Shown: positions 1,708 through 61,708, numbered from the stretch's first letter. The stretch: DNA of 64,000 bases from Candidatus Omnitrophota bacterium (GCA_020632555.1 JACKFI010000002.1:130621-194620); one strand, 5' to 3'. Notes: generated by a model not told the origin, from the sequence alone. Numbers and translations are program-made.

Positions 1708-3426
1708 TTATCCTTCATCAAAAAAACTCTCTTCACTCGCAACATGCCGCAATCCACGGTTAATAATATCTATATCGAATTGCTCTGGATCAAAATCTCC
1801 GCCAAGCCACTCTCTCTTCTCTGCATATTCAGGATGGTCGGGATCGCGGATAATCTCTAGAAATCTTTCATACCCCCCAGGACCGCCGCAATCATCAGGC
1901 GGGCAACTGCGCTCACCGGCAAGACACAAAGGATATCTGGTGCCCTTCTGCGGGGCTAATACTTTTTCCAAAAAGACAGCATGTTCCCACCCATCACCAA
2001 AATCATATTCAAAAACAAACTGCCGAAGCTCGTCGACAGAGAAATCACCCAAACGAAACTCACCCTCATCCTCAAAATCATCAAGCTCTGAATAATCTTC
2101 ACAAGGAATACTATACTTTTTCTTACCTATACAGAATTGATGCAAATGACAATTATCCCACTCCATCACAAGAATCAGTGTCGCCGCCAAACGCTTTAGA
2201 GTGATGCCGCTTTTAACCTGAAACCTGCGCCAAATTGCAGGTTGGATATTATTTAAGACGACCTTAAACTCTAACACTTTACTCTGCCCCAATAACGACG
2301 GATTCTTTTTACTGACAACTTTTGATTTCTTCACTTTACGTTTGGATTTGCTAGAAGAATCCTTGAAAGGACCGCCTTCTTTTTTAAATGCCTTGTTAAG
2401 CTCGTCACGCGCATAATCAAGCATGGGAAGTTCTTGAACCACTTGGGTTGTAATACCAAAAACGGCCAATGGCGCAAAAACAGATGCCAAATGCGCCTGC
2501 CGAATACAGATCATTTTTGGAAAAACCCGATTCTTTCTGACAGCCTCACATATTTGATTTAGAAAGTCCGCACCATGATCCACAGCATCAGCCAAATTCA
2601 TATGAAGAATAAACCCAGACTCTTGATCTGCCATCATATAACAAAAAGGAAACCGTGGACGTTCGTCTGAGTTTCTAATAGGCATCTCCCCCATAAAACA
2701 GTCCGCCTCCCAAACCATTTCAGTTTTCTGAGCTTTGCTAAATACCTGTTCAAGTAAAACTTCATCAAATTTGGGAATAATTTGAATAACACGTTTTAAT
2801 GGTTGAGGTGAAATAAATGCCTCTTGCCAAATTGTCCCTTGAGTTGTTTGAACAGGCGTGCGGGCTAAAAAAGTATAATAATCGCCCGGGCCCAGAATAT
2901 CCGGATTATCTTTCGCGCGACGGGCAACATCCACAACCTGCTCAAGACAAACACTCATAAACACCGCATCATTTTCTTGAAATAACCACGGAAAAAATCC
3001 AGGCTCAAATCTACGAAACTGCGGCCAACCCTGTAAGGTCGGATATGACACGCCTGCCGCTTTACAAAAAGCTAAATCTTCTGGATTAAGCATGTTTTTA
3101 TTTTCTAGAAATACCGTCAAGGAGTCTTTCTGATATAAAAAATCTATATCTGGCTCTTCAATATCATTTAAAACGGCTTCATGATAAGCAACAAGCCCCC
3201 GATCACCCAACATTGCGTCAAGCCCGCAACAAATACCCTCAGCACCCATCACAATACAATAAGCAATTTGTTCTGACTGCGGATCACGTACAGCAACAAC
3301 CTCCCGATCTCCCATCCAACGCCACGGTTCCAATGCCACAAACGCATCCAGCGCGGCCAAGAGCCGCCGGGCAGTATTCTCAGACGGAAACAAGAACTTC
3401 TTATTGAGCTGATTTTGTCGAGCCAT
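1708..3426 (-). CDS. pRiA4b ORF-3-like (PF07929-type) domain protein with a large uncharacterised N-terminal region
   Basis: 572 aa with an ATG start and an AGAGGTG Shine-Dalgarno. The C-terminal ~180 aa carries 'LEFKVVLNNIQPAIWRRFQV', 'HLHQF', 'YDFGDGWEH' and 'CPPDDCGGPGGYERFLE', the signature of the plasmid pRiA4b ORF-3 / IS1096 TnpR-passenger family. Confidence 0.7.
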   Translation of the reverse strand: MARQNQLNKKFLFPSENTARRLLAALDAFVALEPWRWMGDREVVAVRDPQSEQIAYCIVMGAEGICCGLDAMLGDRGLVAYHEAVLNDIEEPDIDFLYQKDSLTVFLENKNMLNPEDLAFCKAAGVSYPTLQGWPQFRRFEPGFFPWLFQENDAVFMSVCLEQVVDVARRAKDNPDILGPGDYYTFLARTPVQTTQGTIWQEAFISPQPLKRVIQIIPKFDEVLLEQVFSKAQKTEMVWEADCFMGEMPIRNSDERPRFPFCYMMADQESGFILHMNLADAVDHGADFLNQICEAVRKNRVFPKMICIRQAHLASVFAPLAVFGITTQVVQELPMLDYARDELNKAFKKEGGPFKDSSSKSKRKVKKSKVVSKKNPSLLGQSKVLEFKVVLNNIQPAIWRRFQVKSGITLKRLAATLILVMEWDNCHLHQFCIGKKKYSIPCEDYSELDDFEDEGEFRLGDFSVDELRQFVFEYDFGDGWEHAVFLEKVLAPQKGTRYPLCLAGERSCPPDDCGGPGGYERFLEIIRDPDHPEYAEKREWLGGDFDPEQFDIDIINRGLRHVASEESFFDEG

Positions 3427-3549: not shown

Positions 3550-3645
3550 TTGACAATTTAACCCGAATTTTGCATTTCTCTTTTTTATGCGCAACATATC
3601 GTCACGTACTATAGTGTAATGCAAAATTTGGGGTTAATTGTCAAT
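3550..3645. repeat. 96-nt imperfect palindrome: 27-nt arms, 42-nt spacer (repeat copy A)
   Basis: Left arm is ttgacaatttaacccgaattttgcatt (3550-3576). Right arm is aatgcaaaatttggggttaattgtcaa (3619-3645). About 24/27 positions are complementary, with a bulge. Left arm plus spacer (3556-3610) matches 27137-27192. Confidence 0.85.
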
Positions 3646-3653
3646 AATTTTCA

Positions 3654-3693
3654 CAAAAAAACCCGGCTGATTCGCAAATACGAACCAGCCGGG
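3654..3693 (-). terminator. rho-independent terminator downstream of the CxxC gene
   Basis: Minus-sense CCCGGCTG-(16-nt loop)-CAGCCGGG followed by TTTTTTT. Confidence 0.75.
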
Positions 3694-3707: not shown

Positions 3708-3864
3708 TTATCGGCTATCGCCCTTACGCTTGGAAAAACAATCCTTACAATAGACGGGACGGTCTTCGCGCGGCAAAAGGAACGTCGCATTGTTGTTTAC
3801 AATCTGCGCAAACAGCCTTATGCATTTCGCGCGGTCCACGGTCATATCCACCTTGAAAAGCCAT
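3708..3864 (-). pseudogene. CxxC-x17-CxxC zinc-ribbon small protein, reading frame broken by a 2-nt deficit
   Basis: AGGAGA Shine-Dalgarno 7 nt before the ATG at 3864. Frame 0 reads MAFQGGYDRGPREMHKAVCADCKQQCDVPFAARRPSRLL* (stop at 3745). The +1 frame continues PREDRPVYCKDCFSKRKGDSR* (stop at 3708). Joined with one extra residue, this gives exactly CxxC-x17-CxxC. The break sits in the GC-repeat tract at ~3766-3775. Confidence 0.6.
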
Positions 3865-4624: not shown

Positions 4625-5850
4625 TTAGAAGTTTCGTAAGCTCCCTTTGAGCTTAAACCCGTTGCGCCAATATGACCCCCTAGGCGGCACATATCGCGGC
4701 AATCTTTTGACCTTTTTGACAACGGCAACCTTAACCTCTGGCTGCGGCCGTTGGTCTATCGGTTTAAACGCTAATGGCTGCTTCCCATACTTGATCGCCA
4801 GCCGGCCATTTAAATACTCAAAAACTACCACCTGCCGAGCCCGCGTTTTATCTGTCACCTGATACAACCGGCGTTCATGCAACACGGTTCGGTCATTGCG
4901 TAACACATGCCCTGTCTGTACGGACAATATCTCGTCGAGTTTAACGCTCTTATCAATCGGCCGATGCATATCACCCAACAACCGCGCTACTACCTAAAGC
5001 GCTTATTAAACTTCGGCAAATACGTTTTTAAGAATGCGTTGGCTTCTTCACAACTCTTAATCCCGGCCAACCGCATCTCTTTAACCAACCGGTCTTGCAA
5101 TGTCTTAAAAACACGCTCGATGCGTCCCTTGGCCTGCGGACTATGCGCATGAATAACTTCGATCCCAAGTTGCTTACATGCTCGCTCAAACTGCGTCAGC
5201 TCTTCTTTGTCCTCAAAATCCCAATTCGCATAGCGATATCTTTTTTTAGCATTGCTTTTTATACGTCGCATGCTTATCAAGATACAATTGCACCGGCAAT
5301 CCATACTTCTGGGCGTAAGACTTTAACCCGCCATCGCCGGTTTGGTCCCCTCATACTCAAGAACAACCCATCAAAAATTACTCGTTGCGTCGTCGATAAA
5401 TCCCATCAAGACCAACTTCGGTCCTCGGTCTTCCAGCCAAAGATGATGACTCCCGTCCATCTGCACCATTTGCCCAAACCGTTCCCTTACGGGCTCGCCA
5501 ACTGCGCTCTTTAACTTTTCGACGCTTGCCCTCATGCCATAATCCTTCTGCTATCAGCCACAGCCGCAATGTCTCATCACTAATCTTAATATGATCTAAT
5601 TCCCAAAGTTTTTTCGCTGGCTAAAAAGTGGACCAAATCCCTTGTATCGCTCACGGTACAAACCCAAAATCCTTTCACGTACCGCTTTGGCAACACTACG
5701 CCGTCCTTTGCATCCTCGCGATCGGTGGATGACTCCGCGTTCTCCTTCCTTGCGTACCCGTCGGACAATCCGCCTGATCTGTCGATCACTTAATTCTATG
5801 GGAATGATACCATTGATCCTTACCCCTGATCCCAGCGGAGGCGATGAAAA
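4625..5850 (-). mobile_element. decayed ISNCY-family IS: DDE transposase pseudogene split by several frameshifts and stops, N-terminus truncated
   Basis: Fragments in three frames. The HTH region reads 'LSDRQIRRIVRRVRKEGERGVIH...YKGFGPLFSQRKL' (5590-5800). Next comes 'ISDETLRLWLIAEGLW...KRRKVK' followed by 'MVQMDGSHHLWLEDRGPKLVLMGFIDDATS'. The rve core is 'LTQFERACKQLGIEVIHAHSPQAKGRIERVFKTLQDRLVKEMRLAGI' (4990-5304). The C-terminus is 'GDMHRPID...RTVLHERRLYQV' (4625-4981). Confidence 0.7.
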
Positions 5851-6179: not shown

Positions 6180-7300
6180 ATGAAAGGAGTGAAAAAACTT
6201 ATGTGTCCGTACAAATATTATCATGTTATGAGACAAAGCAAAGATAAAAAAATCTTACGTTACCAGATGGTTCTAAAGGCTCTAGCGCTGGGCGTCAAGC
6301 CCACAGCCAGACTTTTTAATACCAGCGCGCCTGTGGTCCGTAAATGGTCCAAGCGTTTTAAGACTGACGGTTATCTTGGATTAAACGACCGCTCCCACAA
6401 ACCCCACTATTCTCCCGGTGCCACACCCGAGCCTATAAAAAGTTTATCATCGATCTAAAGGGCAAATATAAGCGTTTGGGCGCAGAACACATTCGAAACT
6501 TAGAAGGTTTAACTTATGCCCCTAAAACCATGCGCAAAATCTGGAAAGAGGCGGGTATCCCGTCGAGAAAGAGACCCAAGAAACATGTCACAAAGAACAA
6601 CCTGCGCGCCGTAAAAATGCTCTTTAAATTATTCGAGCAATCCATGGAGGACACCAAAGACCTCATGGATATCCCCGAATACTATCTCCAAGCTAAAATG
6701 CTTAATCTGCCAAAAGTGCAATATACTTTTTCGGGAAGTCTCCTGCGGAATTCTTTTTACCGGCTTTGCCAATAATCTTTCGCTAACACATTCACAATTA
6801 TTTGCCGTCTATATCAACCACTTCCTCAAGAAATTTAGCGCTCTGCCGAAATCGGCTATGCGACAAACTGATAATGGCAGCGAATTCATCGGCGCTTGGA
6901 ATGCTAAAAAATCTTCTGCCTACACCAAGACCATCGAATCTGTGCCCGGCCAATGGCACAACACAATTTTCCCGGTGCACATCGCATGCAATCTGACGTC
7001 GAGACGATTCACAATCTCATGGAGATGGAATTCTTTGAGATTGAACAATTCAAGAATCAATAGGGCGGACTTCTTTAACAAAGCCACGTCCTATCAATTA
7101 TTCTTCAACCTGCATCGCACAAACTCTTACAAAGAACACAAAACACCTTGGCAATTAGCCCAAGAAAAGAAACCAGATTTGGACAAACGCTTACTGATGG
7201 TTCCTCCAGTCGATCTCGACAAACTACTCAACTGGAAATTATCACTTACTCATTCGAAGGGGGGTAACGATCACTTGACCGTTCCCTCATTTTTTGTGGC
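6180..7300 (+). mobile_element. decayed IS481-like IS: integrase-core transposase pseudogene, at least 3 frame breaks
   Basis: N-terminal HTH is 'ARLFNTSAPVVRKWSKRFKTDGYLGLNDRSHKPHYSPGATP' (6180-6458). The middle fragment spans 6476-6775. The DDE core is 'RQTDNGSEFIGAW' with the tail 'SYKEHKTPWQLAQE...PPVDLD' (6858-~7290). Frames differ between the pieces. This is the only plus-strand coding remnant in the window. Confidence 0.65.
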
Positions 7301-27003: not shown

Positions 27004-27050
27004 TGTGCATATCTCCTGTAGAAATTTGAAAAATTCAAAACAGACCAAAC

Positions 27051-27128
27051 TTACGTAAAATAATTCCCCACCGGCAATCTTTGTCCAACGGCAAAGGCGT
27101 GAGCAGACATGGGCTTAACGGATTGCAA
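27051..27128 (-). pseudogene. orphan duplicate of the fmt C-terminal 25 codons
   Basis: Reads LQSVKPMSAHAFAVGQRLPVGNYFT*, against fmt's PQSGKEMPAYAFAVGQRLSVGSCFG*. The 24-nt core 27075-27098 matches 28505-28528 at 23/24. There is no upstream coding continuation. Confidence 0.8.
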
Positions 27129-27136
27129 ATAAAGTA

Positions 27137-27192
27137 TTTTAAACTCGGATTTTGCATTTCACTTTTTTGTGCGCAACGTATCGTCGCGCACT
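27137..27192. repeat. 55-nt dispersed repeat, copy B (homolog of 3556-3610)
   Basis: My hand alignment gives 47/55 identities with copy A (tttaaactcggattttgcatttcacttttttgtgcgcaacgtatcgtcgcgcact). It lies directly between the orphan fmt fragment and the Fic stop codon. Confidence 0.85.
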
Positions 27193-27232
27193 GTTAAGAA
27201 CCCACCAAAACATTAACGAAAAGCGACTTGAA

Positions 27233-28261
27233 TTATTTTTTACGATCCAAACTTGCGATATGCTCCGCCATATCATGAACACGAACATACCAGAGCTTTC
27301 CCTTCTTCTTGGCCTTGAGCACTCCACGATTGATCAGATTACGCAAATAATCTTGAGAATAATCATATAGCCGCGCCAGATCGCGCAAAGGAATAATAGC
27401 ATCCTTATCCAAACTATTTGTCGTTGTCCTATTCATACGCTTAAAACTTTCAGCCAATCGATCCAACACGATTTTTTTAAGCCCTTTTAACGGGACATCC
27501 GTAACGATCCCATCCGCCTGCTCTAACGAAATCTTCTTTCCCTGCTCAAGCCTTCGATTGATCGCTTCAAAACAATCATCTCCTTGTTCTAAAGCATTAT
27601 AATATTGATCTCGATCTGTCTTAGAAAAACCCTTGATCGCAATATTAAGATGCCCCGTACCAATAAGAATATAATTCAAAAGAATACGTCCGCAACGTCC
27701 ATTCCCATCTCTGAAAGGATGAATTGTTTCAAACCAAGTGTGTGCCAAGGTTGCCAATGTAATAGAAGAATACTTAGATCGCTTCAAATGCTTATTGACC
27801 CAACGAACCATCAAGTCCATCGCTGCTCGAAGATAAAAATGATCAATCGGTTTAAAACGAGATTGTGTAACTTCAACGGTTAATTCACGAAAGTCCCCGA
27901 TCTGCCCAATATAACTGCCCAACTCTTTCTCATACCGCATGAGAATCGTGTGAATCTGCTTAACATCTGACATCCTTAAAACAAACTCCCCCTCCTGCCA
28001 CTGATTGTAAGCATAGTCATACATAGCGCTAGCGGATTCAAAATACCCCAAAATCGCAGCCGCCTTTTCCTTATTGGTCCGACTATTATGTTCAAGGACA
28101 TCAATCAGTTCTTGACGATTAGCAAAAACTCCCTCAATCGCAATAGAGTTGCGAATCTCTTCACGGAAAAGCGAATACCACTCCACATTCTGAACCGTAA
28201 CAAGCCGTCTTTTGTCGGAATGTAGTGTGGCAATGGCTTTTTTTAGACTTTTTTCATCCAT
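27233..28261 (-). CDS. Fic-family protein (class II, N-terminal inhibitory helix) with C-terminal excisionase/MerR-type HTH
   Basis: 342 aa with an ATG start. The canonical active site is 'HPFRDGNGRCGRILLNY' (HxFx[DE]GNGRxxR). The inhibitory motif 'SIAIEG' ([ST]xxxE[GN]) lies upstream in the same chain. The C-terminal HTH is 'LRDLARLYDYSQDYLRNLINRGVLKAKKKGKLWYV'. Confidence 0.9.
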   Translation of the reverse strand: MDEKSLKKAIATLHSDKRRLVTVQNVEWYSLFREEIRNSIAIEGVFANRQELIDVLEHNSRTNKEKAAAILGYFESASAMYDYAYNQWQEGEFVLRMSDVKQIHTILMRYEKELGSYIGQIGDFRELTVEVTQSRFKPIDHFYLRAAMDLMVRWVNKHLKRSKYSSITLATLAHTWFETIHPFRDGNGRCGRILLNYILIGTGHLNIAIKGFSKTDRDQYYNALEQGDDCFEAINRRLEQGKKISLEQADGIVTDVPLKGLKKIVLDRLAESFKRMNRTTTNSLDKDAIIPLRDLARLYDYSQDYLRNLINRGVLKAKKKGKLWYVRVHDMAEHIASLDRKK

Positions 28262-28277
28262 AACAGCTCTCCCATCT

Positions 28278-28373
28278 ATTTTCGAACCACCTCACATGGT
28301 TCGGAAATAGTATACTGAATTATCGACGATATGCAATAAATAATGTCTCATATATTCCGAACTTTCCGAACCA
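28278..28373 (-). promoter_or_regulatory. Fic promoter with repeated TTCCGAACCA-type operator half-sites
   Basis: Minus-sense TTGCAT-16 nt-TATACT is followed at once by the inverted repeat TTTCCGAACCA-tgtgagg-TGGTTCGAAA, then the GGGAGA Shine-Dalgarno and the ATG. A second pair, GGTTCGGAAAGTTCGGAA, lies ~70 nt upstream (28355-28373). Confidence 0.55.
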
Positions 28374-28480
28374 TACCTCCTGCCAGCACGGCAGAACTCC
28401 GTTGAAATACACCAACAGCTGAATAATACCATCCTGTGATTTAACAAACTCTGACAAGAATAAAAACAAACCCTACCTCA

Positions 28481-29410
28481 CTATCCAAAGCAACTACCAA
28501 CGGACAATCTTTGTCCGACGGCAAAGGCATATGCCGGCATCTCCTTGCCGGATTGCGGATGAACTGTTTTTAACACCAACGCATCTTTGCTGGTCGCAAC
28601 AATAATGCCCTCTTTGGTGATCGTAAGGATTGTTCCCGGCGTTTGTGAAAACTCTTGAGGAACAACCGCACTGCTAAGAACCTTAAATATTTTGCCTTGA
28701 TATGAAGTATACGCGCCCGGCCAAGGAACAAGCCCGCGAATCACATTATGAATATCACCTGCCGGCTTATTCCAATTGATATGCCCTAACTCTTTGCTCA
28801 ACTTGGGCGCCAAGCTCACATCGTTCTGATTTTGTGCTGTTAATGAAAATTGTCCGTCGGCAATATTTTTTATCGTAGGACACAAACATTGCGCGCTGGC
28901 TTTGGCCATACGACTACGCAAACTTTGCGCTGTTTCATCAGCGGCAATACTCATCTTCCCTTGTACAATAATTTCACCGGCATCCATTTTCGAATTCATT
29001 TTAATCAAAGAAAACCCCGTCTGTGTTTCTCCCCGAATAATAGCCCAATTGATCGGCGCCGCTCCCCGATACTTTGGCAAAAGCGAACCGTGCACATTAA
29101 CACAAAATATTTTAGGAATTTGCAGCACACAAGCTGGAAGAATTTTACCATAAGCAATCACCACAAACAGATCCGCAGCAAAATTTCGTAAAGACTCTAA
29201 AAAGGCTGAATCCCGCACATCATCCGGTTGTAAAACCGGAATCTGCTGCTTCAAAGCGATCTGCTTAATCGGTGAAGCGACCACCTGCAAACCTCGTCCG
29301 CTGGGCCGATCTGGCTGAGTCACGCAAGCAACAATCGAAAACTTTTCCGACAATAATTGCCGCAAGCTCTCTGCCGCGAAATCATCACTGCCAAAAAAAA
29401 TAATTTTCAT
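28481..29410 (-). CDS. fmt: methionyl-tRNA formyltransferase
   Basis: Motifs seen are 'IIFFGSDDFA', 'PDRPSGRG', 'NVHGSLLPKYRGAAPINWAII' and a C-terminal beta-barrel domain. The ATG at 29410 is preferred; the track's TTG at 29431 is not. Confidence 0.9.
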   Translation of the reverse strand: MKIIFFGSDDFAAESLRQLLSEKFSIVACVTQPDRPSGRGLQVVASPIKQIALKQQIPVLQPDDVRDSAFLESLRNFAADLFVVIAYGKILPACVLQIPKIFCVNVHGSLLPKYRGAAPINWAIIRGETQTGFSLIKMNSKMDAGEIIVQGKMSIAADETAQSLRSRMAKASAQCLCPTIKNIADGQFSLTAQNQNDVSLAPKLSKELGHINWNKPAGDIHNVIRGLVPWPGAYTSYQGKIFKVLSSAVVPQEFSQTPGTILTITKEGIIVATSKDALVLKTVHPQSGKEMPAYAFAVGQRLSVGSCFG

Positions 29411-29434
29411 AGCCACCACTCTATCTTTCAATAA

Positions 29435-31270
29435 TTAAGGGTTCACATCAACGGTTAGAATAACACCTTTACGTTTATGATAATCCGATAGAACAGGTTC
29501 AACCTGAGCCAACATCTTTTTAACAATCTTACCCTTGAGCATTATAGTGTAGCGAAACTTATCCCGCAATTTTGGTATCACATCTGGCTGCGGCAAAGCA
29601 ATTTCAAAGCCCTTACCCTTGATTCCTTTGAGCTGCTCATACAATTCTTGCGCCTGTGTCAAAACACTTTCTTCCACCGTCCCCCGCAAAGCCAATGCCA
29701 TGACCTGCGCATACGGCGGCAAATTCAATTCCCGACGAACTTTAAGTTCTTTCCGATAAAATGTATCGGCATCCAGTGAGGCCGCAGCGACAATCGACTC
29801 GTGCTTTGGACTACGTGTTTGCACCAGCAATTTTTCGCCAGCCGCTTGCCGCAAACGAATTAACAATGAAAACACGCGGCTGCTGGCACGAAAATCAATA
29901 CGGTTGATTTCACCATCAAAATCCAAAACAGCAATCAGCGAAAAATGCGCCCGATGCAAAAACGGCATCACCGCCGCTGTCGCGATCATCAGATTGGATT
30001 GCTTCGAAAAAGTTTTGGCCCCCCGGTCAAATGTGGCCACCTGCGCCTGCGGATAAATCCGCGCCAATTCACTTTCCAATTTTTCTATGCCTGTTCCCGT
30101 TGATCGTAAATACGAACCATTGCACTGCGGACACATTTTAGGCAAATCCGATGAAAAGCCGCAACGATGACACATTAATTTCTTTTTAGAATACATAAAA
30201 CTTAAGTTTGTGTTACACCGTTGACATTTGAGCACCAGCCCGCATTGATTGCATTTGGTCGAAGTGCTAAACCCTCGGCGATTCAAAAACAACAAAACCT
30301 TACCGTTTTTGACCAATGTTTCTAGAATCATATTCTGCAGGGGAAAAGACACCAGCATGTTCTGATATTTATAATTCGCTAAATCAATCACCTGAAAATC
30401 CGCCAAATGTTTTTCGGCACAAATCTCTGGGACAACTTTTTTATCTTTAAGAATTTTCCACAATTCCGCGCTGGGCGCCGGACTGACAAATAAAACATCA
30501 CACTGTTCATTTTTGTGCCGCCACAAAGCCACCTGCCGCGCGTGATAAAAAGGCGAAGGCTCTTGTTTATACGAAGGATTTTCTTCATCAACCATCACAA
30601 TCAAACCCACATCCGGCATCATGGCAAAAACAGCTGAACGCGTTCCCAACACCACGCGCGCCCGTCCTTCTTTGACCGCCAACCACTGGGTCAACTCGTG
30701 CTTAACACCCTGATAACGATCTAAAACACATACATCAACAGCACAAACTTTTTCTAAAAACTCTTTGACCACCATGATCTGGCCAATCTCAGGAACAAGA
30801 AAAATAATCCCCCCTCCTTGAGCCAAAATACTTTTTAGTTTTTGCGCGACCGTTTTTGCCGCAGCTTGCAATGAACCTTGGTAAAAAAGAATCTTGGGCT
30901 CTGTCGGTCGCATGATCTGTGGCTGAGGCGTCCAAACAATTTCTCTTTTATCTCGCAAAATCGCAGGCAAAGCCACTTCAATGGCCTCACCCCACGAACA
31001 GGCATAATATTGAGCTAAATCCCAAGTCAATTTTAGAAAATGTTCATCAAGTGTCGGAATATTATCTAAAACAGTGCTCAACGGTTTGATTCGTGGAAAT
31101 TGGGTTTCGGTCAACAAACCAATGACAAAACCTACGCGAAACTTGGATCGGAAAGAAACAACCACGCGCGAACCCACACGAATATGTTCCCGCAGATGAT
31201 GCGGAATTGAATAATCAAACGGACCGGCAACGGGAAGCCCGACAACAATTTGGGCAATCGAATGACACAT
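29435..31270 (-). CDS. priA: primosomal protein N' (PriA) homolog with degenerate ATPase motifs
   Basis: 611 aa. The N-terminal 3'-DNA-binding/WH region ('VGLPVAGPFDYSIP') and the Cys-rich zinc region (CNQCG...CQRCN...CHRCG...CPQCN) are present. The Walker A position reads 'GSLQAAAKT', Walker B reads 'DEEN', and 'AGRAGR' reads 'RQAAGE'. Confidence 0.8.
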   Translation of the reverse strand: MCHSIAQIVVGLPVAGPFDYSIPHHLREHIRVGSRVVVSFRSKFRVGFVIGLLTETQFPRIKPLSTVLDNIPTLDEHFLKLTWDLAQYYACSWGEAIEVALPAILRDKREIVWTPQPQIMRPTEPKILFYQGSLQAAAKTVAQKLKSILAQGGGIIFLVPEIGQIMVVKEFLEKVCAVDVCVLDRYQGVKHELTQWLAVKEGRARVVLGTRSAVFAMMPDVGLIVMVDEENPSYKQEPSPFYHARQVALWRHKNEQCDVLFVSPAPSAELWKILKDKKVVPEICAEKHLADFQVIDLANYKYQNMLVSFPLQNMILETLVKNGKVLLFLNRRGFSTSTKCNQCGLVLKCQRCNTNLSFMYSKKKLMCHRCGFSSDLPKMCPQCNGSYLRSTGTGIEKLESELARIYPQAQVATFDRGAKTFSKQSNLMIATAAVMPFLHRAHFSLIAVLDFDGEINRIDFRASSRVFSLLIRLRQAAGEKLLVQTRSPKHESIVAAASLDADTFYRKELKVRRELNLPPYAQVMALALRGTVEESVLTQAQELYEQLKGIKGKGFEIALPQPDVIPKLRDKFRYTIMLKGKIVKKMLAQVEPVLSDYHKRKGVILTVDVNP

Positions 31271-61589: not shown

Positions 61590-61623
61590 GATTTTCTCCG
61601 TTTTAAACTTTTTTGTTTCTTTT

Positions 61624-61702
61624 CAATTTTGGGAACCGTTTTTAGACTCAATTGTTTGGCGCCTCTATGGCGCTATTCGCCTTAAAACGGTTCCCAAAAT
61701 TG
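61624..61702. repeat. perfect 19-bp inverted repeat with 41-nt spacer
   Basis: caattttgggaaccgtttt (61624-61642) pairs with aaaacggttcccaaaattg (61684-61702). The spacer holds an inner hairpin GCGCC-tctat-GGCGC. The element lies between the dnaJ stop and the fmdB-like start. Confidence 0.9.
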
Positions 61703-61708
61703 ACAAAC

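Follow-up and report, generated by a model that had tools for sequence, protein, structure and literature searches.

Two short, non-coding repeats in a contig of a Candidatus Omnitrophota bacterium (GCA_020632555.1, JACKFI010000002.1:130621-194620; hereafter the window, meaning the whole 64,000-nt stretch that was analyzed) are probably relics of a new MITE-type (non-autonomous) family of mobile elements in the Omnitrophota, moved by a putative transposase. We put the probability of this reading at about 0.75. Prokaryotic MITEs are <500 bp long, with terminal inverted repeats (TIRs) of 4 to 30 bp and flanking direct repeats that decay with age; their targets are A/T-rich and intergenic, and their transcripts form stable stem-loops (PMC10969869). 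The family described here has the small size without coding capacity, the TIRs and the flanking direct repeats, and its copies are dispersed and differ in presence and absence between related genomes.

In the window, positions 3557-3610 (copy A) and 27139-27192 (copy B) have 85% identity across 54 nt; they share one orientation and are 23,582 nt apart. A 37-nt pattern made from the shared bases, ATTTTGCATTTCNCTTTTTTNTGCGCAACNTATCGTC, has exactly two matches in the window, against 0.00 expected from 100 shuffles, and neither copy contains a coding sequence. The original prediction for this DNA had described just such a dispersed non-coding repeat, with a long hairpin at copy A and one arm at copy B, and both descriptions were confirmed. 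The palindrome arms of copy A (3550-3581 and 3613-3644) are 84% complementary and form a hairpin of ~95 nt, which as RNA folds at -37 kcal/mol (z = -7.7). The right-arm sequence AATGCAAAAT was not found in copy B, which has the left arm only. Also as predicted, each copy adjoins the 3' side of a minus-strand accessory gene identified by Pfam, the zinc-finger gene for copy A and Fic for copy B. The surrounding features are as follows.

1708-3426, minus strand: PRiA4_ORF3/DUF7309 protein (Pfam)
3662-3693, minus strand (read from 3693 to 3662): intrinsic terminator of the zinc-finger gene, the sole one nearby and separate from the repeat
3708-3851, minus strand: treble-clef zinc-finger protein (Pfam)
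27233-28261, minus strand: Fic/DOC + HTH_17 gene (Pfam), in a 1430-bp insert
28481-29431, minus strand: fmt (Pfam)
29435-31270, minus strand: priA (Pfam)

Nearly all long ORFs of the window (1-64000) lie on the minus strand, and the GC skew is about -0.2 throughout. The left 7 kb resembles a junkyard of accessory genes and mobile-element remnants; it includes short ORFs at 4990-5304 (minus strand) and 6180-6458 (plus strand) with transposase fragments (rve_3; HTH_28 with an IS481 leucine zipper).

The repeat is not confined to the window. An exact-pattern scan for TTGCATTTCNCTTTTTTNTGCGC through one genome per species (185,579 species) matched, apart from one chance hit, only two related MAGs, one of which has four copies; both MAGs are labeled "uncultured Planctomycetales" (study SRP278252). 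A covariance model, R1, was built from five copies. Within the window it finds copies A and B only, and elsewhere it finds full-length copies at loci L141 and L156 and a short variant at L005 6783-6868. The negative control, about 100 unrelated metagenome and viral loci, gave no R1 match. The tally is at least five copies on four contigs of one MAG, two in another MAG, one in L156 and two in the window; ten copies were examined in all, with six to seven full-length sequences. The original prediction had allowed that the repeat might occur only twice, or might belong to a known sRNA or regulatory family. Neither proved to be the case: further copies are present in the related MAGs and at L141, L156 and L005, and Rfam yielded no match to the window at gathering thresholds, while the loci and three window regions gave only far-sub-threshold generic hairpins at E<=1.

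The hosts are related to one another. The genome GCA_964474085.1, labeled Planctomycetales (loci L001 and L141), has 70% PriA identity to the window, and its L141 locus groups with the Omnitrophota by PriA and gene order. For L156 (GCA_020049755.1) the PriA identity is 87%, and for L139, used in the comparisons below, 89%. Because the hosts are related by PriA, the family appears to be restricted to one lineage, a small clade of Omnitrophota. In plasmid and phage collections (PLSDB and INPHARED), blastn found no match to the full element. Three patterns run against IMG/VR contigs gave nothing or unrelated 17-mer matches without an R1 hit, and a metagenome scan with the loose pattern ATTTTGCATTTCNCTTTTTT returned at least 120 loci, with no real copy among the matches listed.

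Copies in the related MAGs define the full element, which is non-coding, ~190 bp long and 91-92% conserved; the window motif is its 3' module. The element ends in 16-nt imperfect TIRs, CCCGGATTTTGCATTA / TAATGCAAAATTTGGG, and in all complete copies the left end, CCCGGATTTTG[C/T]ATTA, matches the reverse complement of the right end, CCCAAATTTTGCATTA, at 14/16 positions. Core lengths range from 71 to 192 bp across the copies, which lie in intergenic gaps. Immediately outside the TIRs are A/T-rich 5-nt direct repeats that are perfect in 5/8 complete copies and match at 3-4/5 positions in the others. Because the flanking repeats are all WTWAA, left and right agree only modestly more often than chance would give (about 1 in 4 per copy with both sides constrained); the TTAA-like flanks are also self-complementary. 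The perfect flanks are ATAAA/ATAAA (L001, L002 and L004), TTTAA/TTTAA (L003) and TTAAA/TTAAA (L141), and the imperfect ones belong to L005a, L005b and window copy A. Of the seven MAG copies (L001-L005 and L141), five have the TAA stop of the gene upstream within their left 5-nt flank.

Each terminal repeat pairs with an internal complement, and the element thus folds into five helices (z = -9.5). Folding and covariation across copies had been proposed as a check on the repeat, and the six full-length copies bear the structure out: 97.3% of cells are paired, versus 29-46% with slid partners, and compensatory double changes occur at four pairs. The hairpin GTCCCTGCGGGAC is swapped wholesale for a different complementary hairpin in L004 and L156. 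Variants exist in three forms, namely the full element, the left end with P1 and P2 (L005 6783-6868), and the left end with the 3' module (the window copies). A signal and ORF scan of the full-length elements revealed no ORF of note, promoter or terminator inside them.

Comparison of orthologous junctions provides evidence for insertion. At L141 the copy is placed between the end of a GHMP-kinase gene (...TCT TAA) and the start codon (ATG) of the following one, and TTAAA flanks it left and right; the corresponding junctions in the window, L139 and L140 lack the element and contain 0-30 nt of unrelated spacer. In L156 the copy is located upstream of priA, where its right end abuts ATAATAAATTTTAGGTTTTTGAAATAAGAG, and at the same site the window and L139 carry the uninterrupted sequences ...AAATAATTAAAGTTTAGG... 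/ ...ATCAAATAATTAAAGTTTAGGTTTTTGAAATAAGAG. The species that supplied these empty sites have 70-89% PriA identity. The neighbors of the copies in relatives are housekeeping genes: dnaE, an enolase-family gene, sugar-nucleotide genes and priA, and one ATP synthase operon holds two copies. Among the copies in relatives, 7/8 are in sense orientation between co-directional genes, often starting from the stop codon.

The L156 copy (1-110) is full-length except for the first 4-5 nt of the left TIR. What lies upstream bears no relation to the neighbor gene expected there, which marks another rearrangement ending at the element.

The fold and the orientation bias bring up a second explanation, that the element is primarily a functional structured RNA, either a cis-acting part of polycistronic mRNA or a multi-copy sRNA, which is spread by transposition and has degenerated in the window. 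We regard this as unlikely. It draws on the five helices with their compensatory substitutions and very low folding energy, on G.U pairs, among them a conserved U.G pair midway along a 12-bp helix, that would be C.A mismatches on the opposite strand, and on the sense placement of 7/8 copies in relatives between co-directional genes, two of them in one ATP synthase operon. The compensatory changes, the G.U pairs of one strand and the sense bias hint at selection at the RNA level, which is more than purely selfish DNA requires, and to that extent they speak against the MITE-type reading. However, DNA palindromes can stay complementary without RNA selection, and the full-length sequences sampled number only six to seven. 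Moreover, the element has no promoter or terminator within it, no Rfam match and no consistent gene association. Since close relatives lack the element at these intergenic sites, it is dispensable to the host there. In the window, both copies run antisense to the genes beside them and are structurally decayed; neither is likely to do anything now other than form a hairpin if transcribed. It is likewise doubtful that the ~190-nt element is a mobile RNA module working in cis at operon stop codons (in processing, stabilizing or coupling), although, if true, this would make it a new mobile cis-acting RNA module.

Under the MITE-type reading, copy A can be divided as follows.

3550-3556, no strand: outer palindrome arm TTGACAA, pairing with TTGTCAA at 3638-3644
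3557-3561, no strand: left 5-nt flank TTTAA, a putative target-site duplication (partner GTTAA, 4/5 match)
3562-3632, plus strand: copy A, a 71-bp short-form element (model R1, 44.6 bits, E=1e-10)
3562-3577, plus strand: left TIR CCCGAATTTTGCATTT (TIR table)
3578-3616, plus strand: 39-nt interior with a decayed GC hairpin (folding, alignment)
3617-3632, plus strand: right TIR TAATGCAAAATTTGGG (TIR table)
3633-3637, no strand: right 5-nt flank GTTAA (flank comparison)
3638-3644, no strand: outer palindrome arm TTGTCAA (inverted-repeat search, folding)

Over 67-73 nt, the element proper and the 3' module of the MAG copies are 82-85% identical. It is the TTGACAA/TTGTCAA arms that extend the copy A hairpin to ~95 nt; judged by its limits in relatives, the element does not include them, and at this position the sequence of the MAG copies is unrelated. 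When the element and one flank copy are removed, a 7-5-7 palindrome remains, and insertion into a pre-existing palindrome is therefore suspected: the target site of copy A was possibly such a palindrome.

Copy B and the gene fragments around it are laid out in the same way.

27049-27143, minus strand: orphan fmt 3' fragment, encoding ...FKILYLQSVKPMSAHAFAVGQRLPVGNYFT*, the last ~28 Fmt residues
27139-27143, no strand: TTAAA pentamer at the left end of copy B, fitting the family target motif
27144-27195, plus strand: copy B, a short form with the right arm missing (model R1, 17.9 bits, E=0.0017)
27144-27159, plus strand: left TIR CTCGGATTTTGCATTT (coordinates checked)
28487-28574, minus strand: intact fmt 3' end, the other copy of an 88-nt duplication (repeat search)

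The 36-nt interior of copy B includes the hairpin GTGCGCAACGTATCGTCGCGCAC, and similarity to the family stops at ~27195. Identity is 97.8% over 46 nt to the full-length L156 copy and 93-95% to the MAG copies. In both window copies the left TIR is joined straight to the sequence that follows an internal ATTTTGCATT in full copies (TTTC[A/T]CTTTTTT...). By this comparison, the short form of both corresponds to a deletion between two direct ATTTTGCATT repeats; judged in the same way, copy A keeps both terminal repeats and copy B has lost the right arm. A Logan contig of the same organism breaks at window position 27165, inside copy B; exact-protein look-ups yielded Logan contigs of 1.5-2.6 kb only. 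Copies A and B share no run >12 nt, so the break points to other copies with the same k-mers in that sample.

Copy B had been said to end near the orphan fmt fragment, and indeed the two abut to the base at 27144. The TTAAA at 27139-27143 lies within the fmt-like reading frame (GAG TTT AAA, minus strand). Because the intact left terminus abuts this TTAAA inside the leftover fmt 3' end, copy B is most simply read as an ordinary, old insertion into a redundant fmt copy beside the Fic insert, and the right arm would have been deleted afterward.

The Fic insert can be compared with L139, where the order is priA, fmt, the gene for a 221-aa protein and MFP-RND, with no Fic gene and no repeat. Relative to L139 the window has an extra 1430 bp (27145-28574); an 88-nt stretch of the fmt 3' end, duplicated in direct orientation, brackets it, 27057-27144 being a 73% copy of 28487-28574. 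The insert being bracketed in this way, the fmt duplication rather than the repeat is likely the recombination scar. At their core, GCCTTTGCCGTYGGACAAAG, the two duplicates are nearly identical, and to each side they carry different allele types. In the stretch upstream of this core, L139 matches the intact fmt end at 44/48 positions and the orphan fragment at 31/48, while the orphan fragment resembles the L156 fmt allele (21/24 in its second 24 nt), its left half being also like L141. This allele pattern around GCCTTTGCCGTYGGACAAAG suggests recombination within fmt between two alleles, as when a circular or foreign segment integrates, and the alignment favors that origin for the orphan fragment over a decayed duplicate.

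The Fic+HTH_17 gene with ~115 nt of upstream sequence (27233-28378) is found again as a unit (74-86% identity in DNA) in accessory surroundings that are unrelated; one Omnitrophota MAG has it twice, and in L149 it lies near a tyrosine integrase. Homology to four other contigs (L147, L148, L149 and L155) extends only from those ~115 nt to the Fic stop codon, and none of the four Fic loci has a copy of the repeat. A promoter-like site, TGGACA-16-AATTAT, lies at 27060-27087 on the minus strand, inside the conserved fmt-end core. The 221-aa membrane-protein gene downstream may have its native promoter here, which could account for the conservation of that part of the fragment.

These data also bear on whether copy B is an att site of an integrative Fic island and copy A a second such site. 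The Fic segment is a lineage-specific 1430-bp insert with copy B at its edge, and the L149 homologue lies near an integrase. Even so, the proposal is very unlikely: the 88-nt fmt duplication, with its GCCTTTGCCGTYGGACAAAG core and different allele types, places the crossover inside fmt and not at the repeat, the repeat is absent beside Fic elsewhere, and it is present at many loci that have no island.

It is highly improbable that the repeat is a shared operator or promoter for the minus-strand genes downstream (the PRiA4_ORF3-like gene and that for the 221-aa membrane protein), even though a minus-strand start codon follows each copy at a distance of 125-135 nt and TTGACAA/TTGTCAA half-sites border copy A. 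In L139 the 221-aa gene and the sequence upstream of it are the same but the repeat is missing, promoter-like matches are not above shuffle expectation and none falls in the shared segment, and in relatives the family follows stop codons inside operons.

At first inspection, copy A could be taken for an attC site of an integron, or else for some other conserved end at which small gene cassettes recombine, possibilities that the original prediction had raised, in the case of attC only as a lead. An attC site has paired RYYYAAC/GTTRRRY cores at the base of one imperfect hairpin, which includes extrahelical bases, an unpaired spacer in its center and a terminal structure that varies; each such site closes a promoterless cassette on its 3' side, in arrays that usually lie near intI (PMC5027507). 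Copy A on its own resembles attC/VCR-type sites in its imperfect, bulged hairpin, in having a small accessory gene 5' of it, as both window copies are 3' of accessory genes, and in one GTTRRRY-like heptamer; AATTAAC...GTTAAAT occurs close to its arm bases on the gene strand. However, AATTAAC is one base off RYYYAAC, and a regex search of both strands with 15-nt flanks found the paired cores (R''/R') in attC arrangement in 0/9 copies. Moreover, the heptamers of copy A fall within its 5-nt flanks, a variable part that other copies have as direct (ATAAA...ATAAA) and not inverted repeats. Full members of the family are 190-nt, five-helix elements rather than a single attC hairpin. The location of the copies is not linked to cassettes: they occur singly and without arrays, 23.6 kb apart in the window, and in relatives between housekeeping genes and inside operons rather than 3' of accessory cassettes, while the homologous Fic units elsewhere lack the repeat. 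A cassette end is thus barely credible, and a tempting but wrong lead, integron-like cassettes in the Omnitrophota, is removed. The connection to mobile DNA drawn in the original prediction survives in another form, since the repeat holds the true terminus of a mobile element and the copy B terminus is at a rearrangement junction. A terminator reading was rejected, in agreement with the earlier view of the repeat: no terminator-like site overlaps copy A or copy B, and no GC-rich stem with a T-run occurs in the copies or the full-length elements.

Returning to the MITE-type reading, the element would be moved in trans by a putative DDE-type transposase making 5-bp staggered cuts at WTWAA, and its insertions would survive mainly in tight intergenic gaps, in sense orientation, where they would simply be co-transcribed. 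No longer element with matching ends was found in the sequences examined, and the transposase fragments of the window (rve_3 and the IS481-type HTH) have no matching ends nearby. The TIRs give a handle for tracing the responsible transposase.

Several known MITEs are similar in general plan. Correia (Neisseria), ERIC/IRU (enterobacteria), RUP (pneumococcus) and QMITE2 (Coxiella) are likewise <500 bp and non-coding, have TIRs and flanking direct repeats, are dispersed over A/T-rich intergenic targets, yield transcripts predicted as very stable stem-loops, and are found inserted inside operons and beside rearrangement junctions. The Omnitrophota element differs in sequence, having no similarity to any entry of the plasmid, phage, viral and Rfam collections searched; in its 5-bp WTWAA duplication, whereas the target duplication of Correia and RUP is TA; and in its multi-branched five-helix fold, in place of a single long hairpin. 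BOX elements are built of boxA, boxB and boxC modules and are not known to have clear TIRs or target-site duplications. Those of Streptococcus pneumoniae are also modular with module-subset variants, intergenic and able to form stable RNA folds (PMC3049150). They have no sequence relationship to the Omnitrophota element. The REP/REPIN sequences, mobilized by RAYT, are again short, hairpin-forming extragenic repeats that are often co-transcribed, and copy A is of REPIN size. However, REPINs are inverted pairs of short GC-rich palindromes with no known target duplication, whereas the arms of the Omnitrophota element are A/T-rich and not palindromic themselves, with 5-nt direct repeats outside.

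A literature search found no earlier description of a MITE-type repeat for the Omnitrophota; the present one is the first sequence-level description found in this uncultured phylum. The element accounts for assembly breaks and one rearrangement junction in these MAGs, and its preference for TAA-containing pentamers at gene ends illustrates how small mobile elements persist in compact operons.

A second hairpin family, unrelated to the first, was observed at window positions 61620-61706 and at ~9837-9919 of L141. In the window it lies between dnaJ and an FmdB-like zinc-ribbon gene (z = -9.4), and in L141, from the relative with 70% PriA identity, it lies between an MGDG-synthase-like gene and priA. 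It belongs to no Rfam family. The two members have an identical ~45-nt loop, ...CAATTGTTT(G/T)GCGCCTCTATGGCGCTATTCGCCTTAAAA, and stems that differ yet stay complementary. The Logan assembly breaks inside this hairpin (~61656), as it does in copy B at 27165, which is consistent with repeats or palindromes that fragment assemblies. Its topology, a small GC hairpin enclosed in a long A/T stem, matches that seen in the main family's 3' module; were the ~190-nt element a mobile RNA module after all, this shared topology would point to common host or mobile machinery that recognizes long A/T stems around small GC hairpins.
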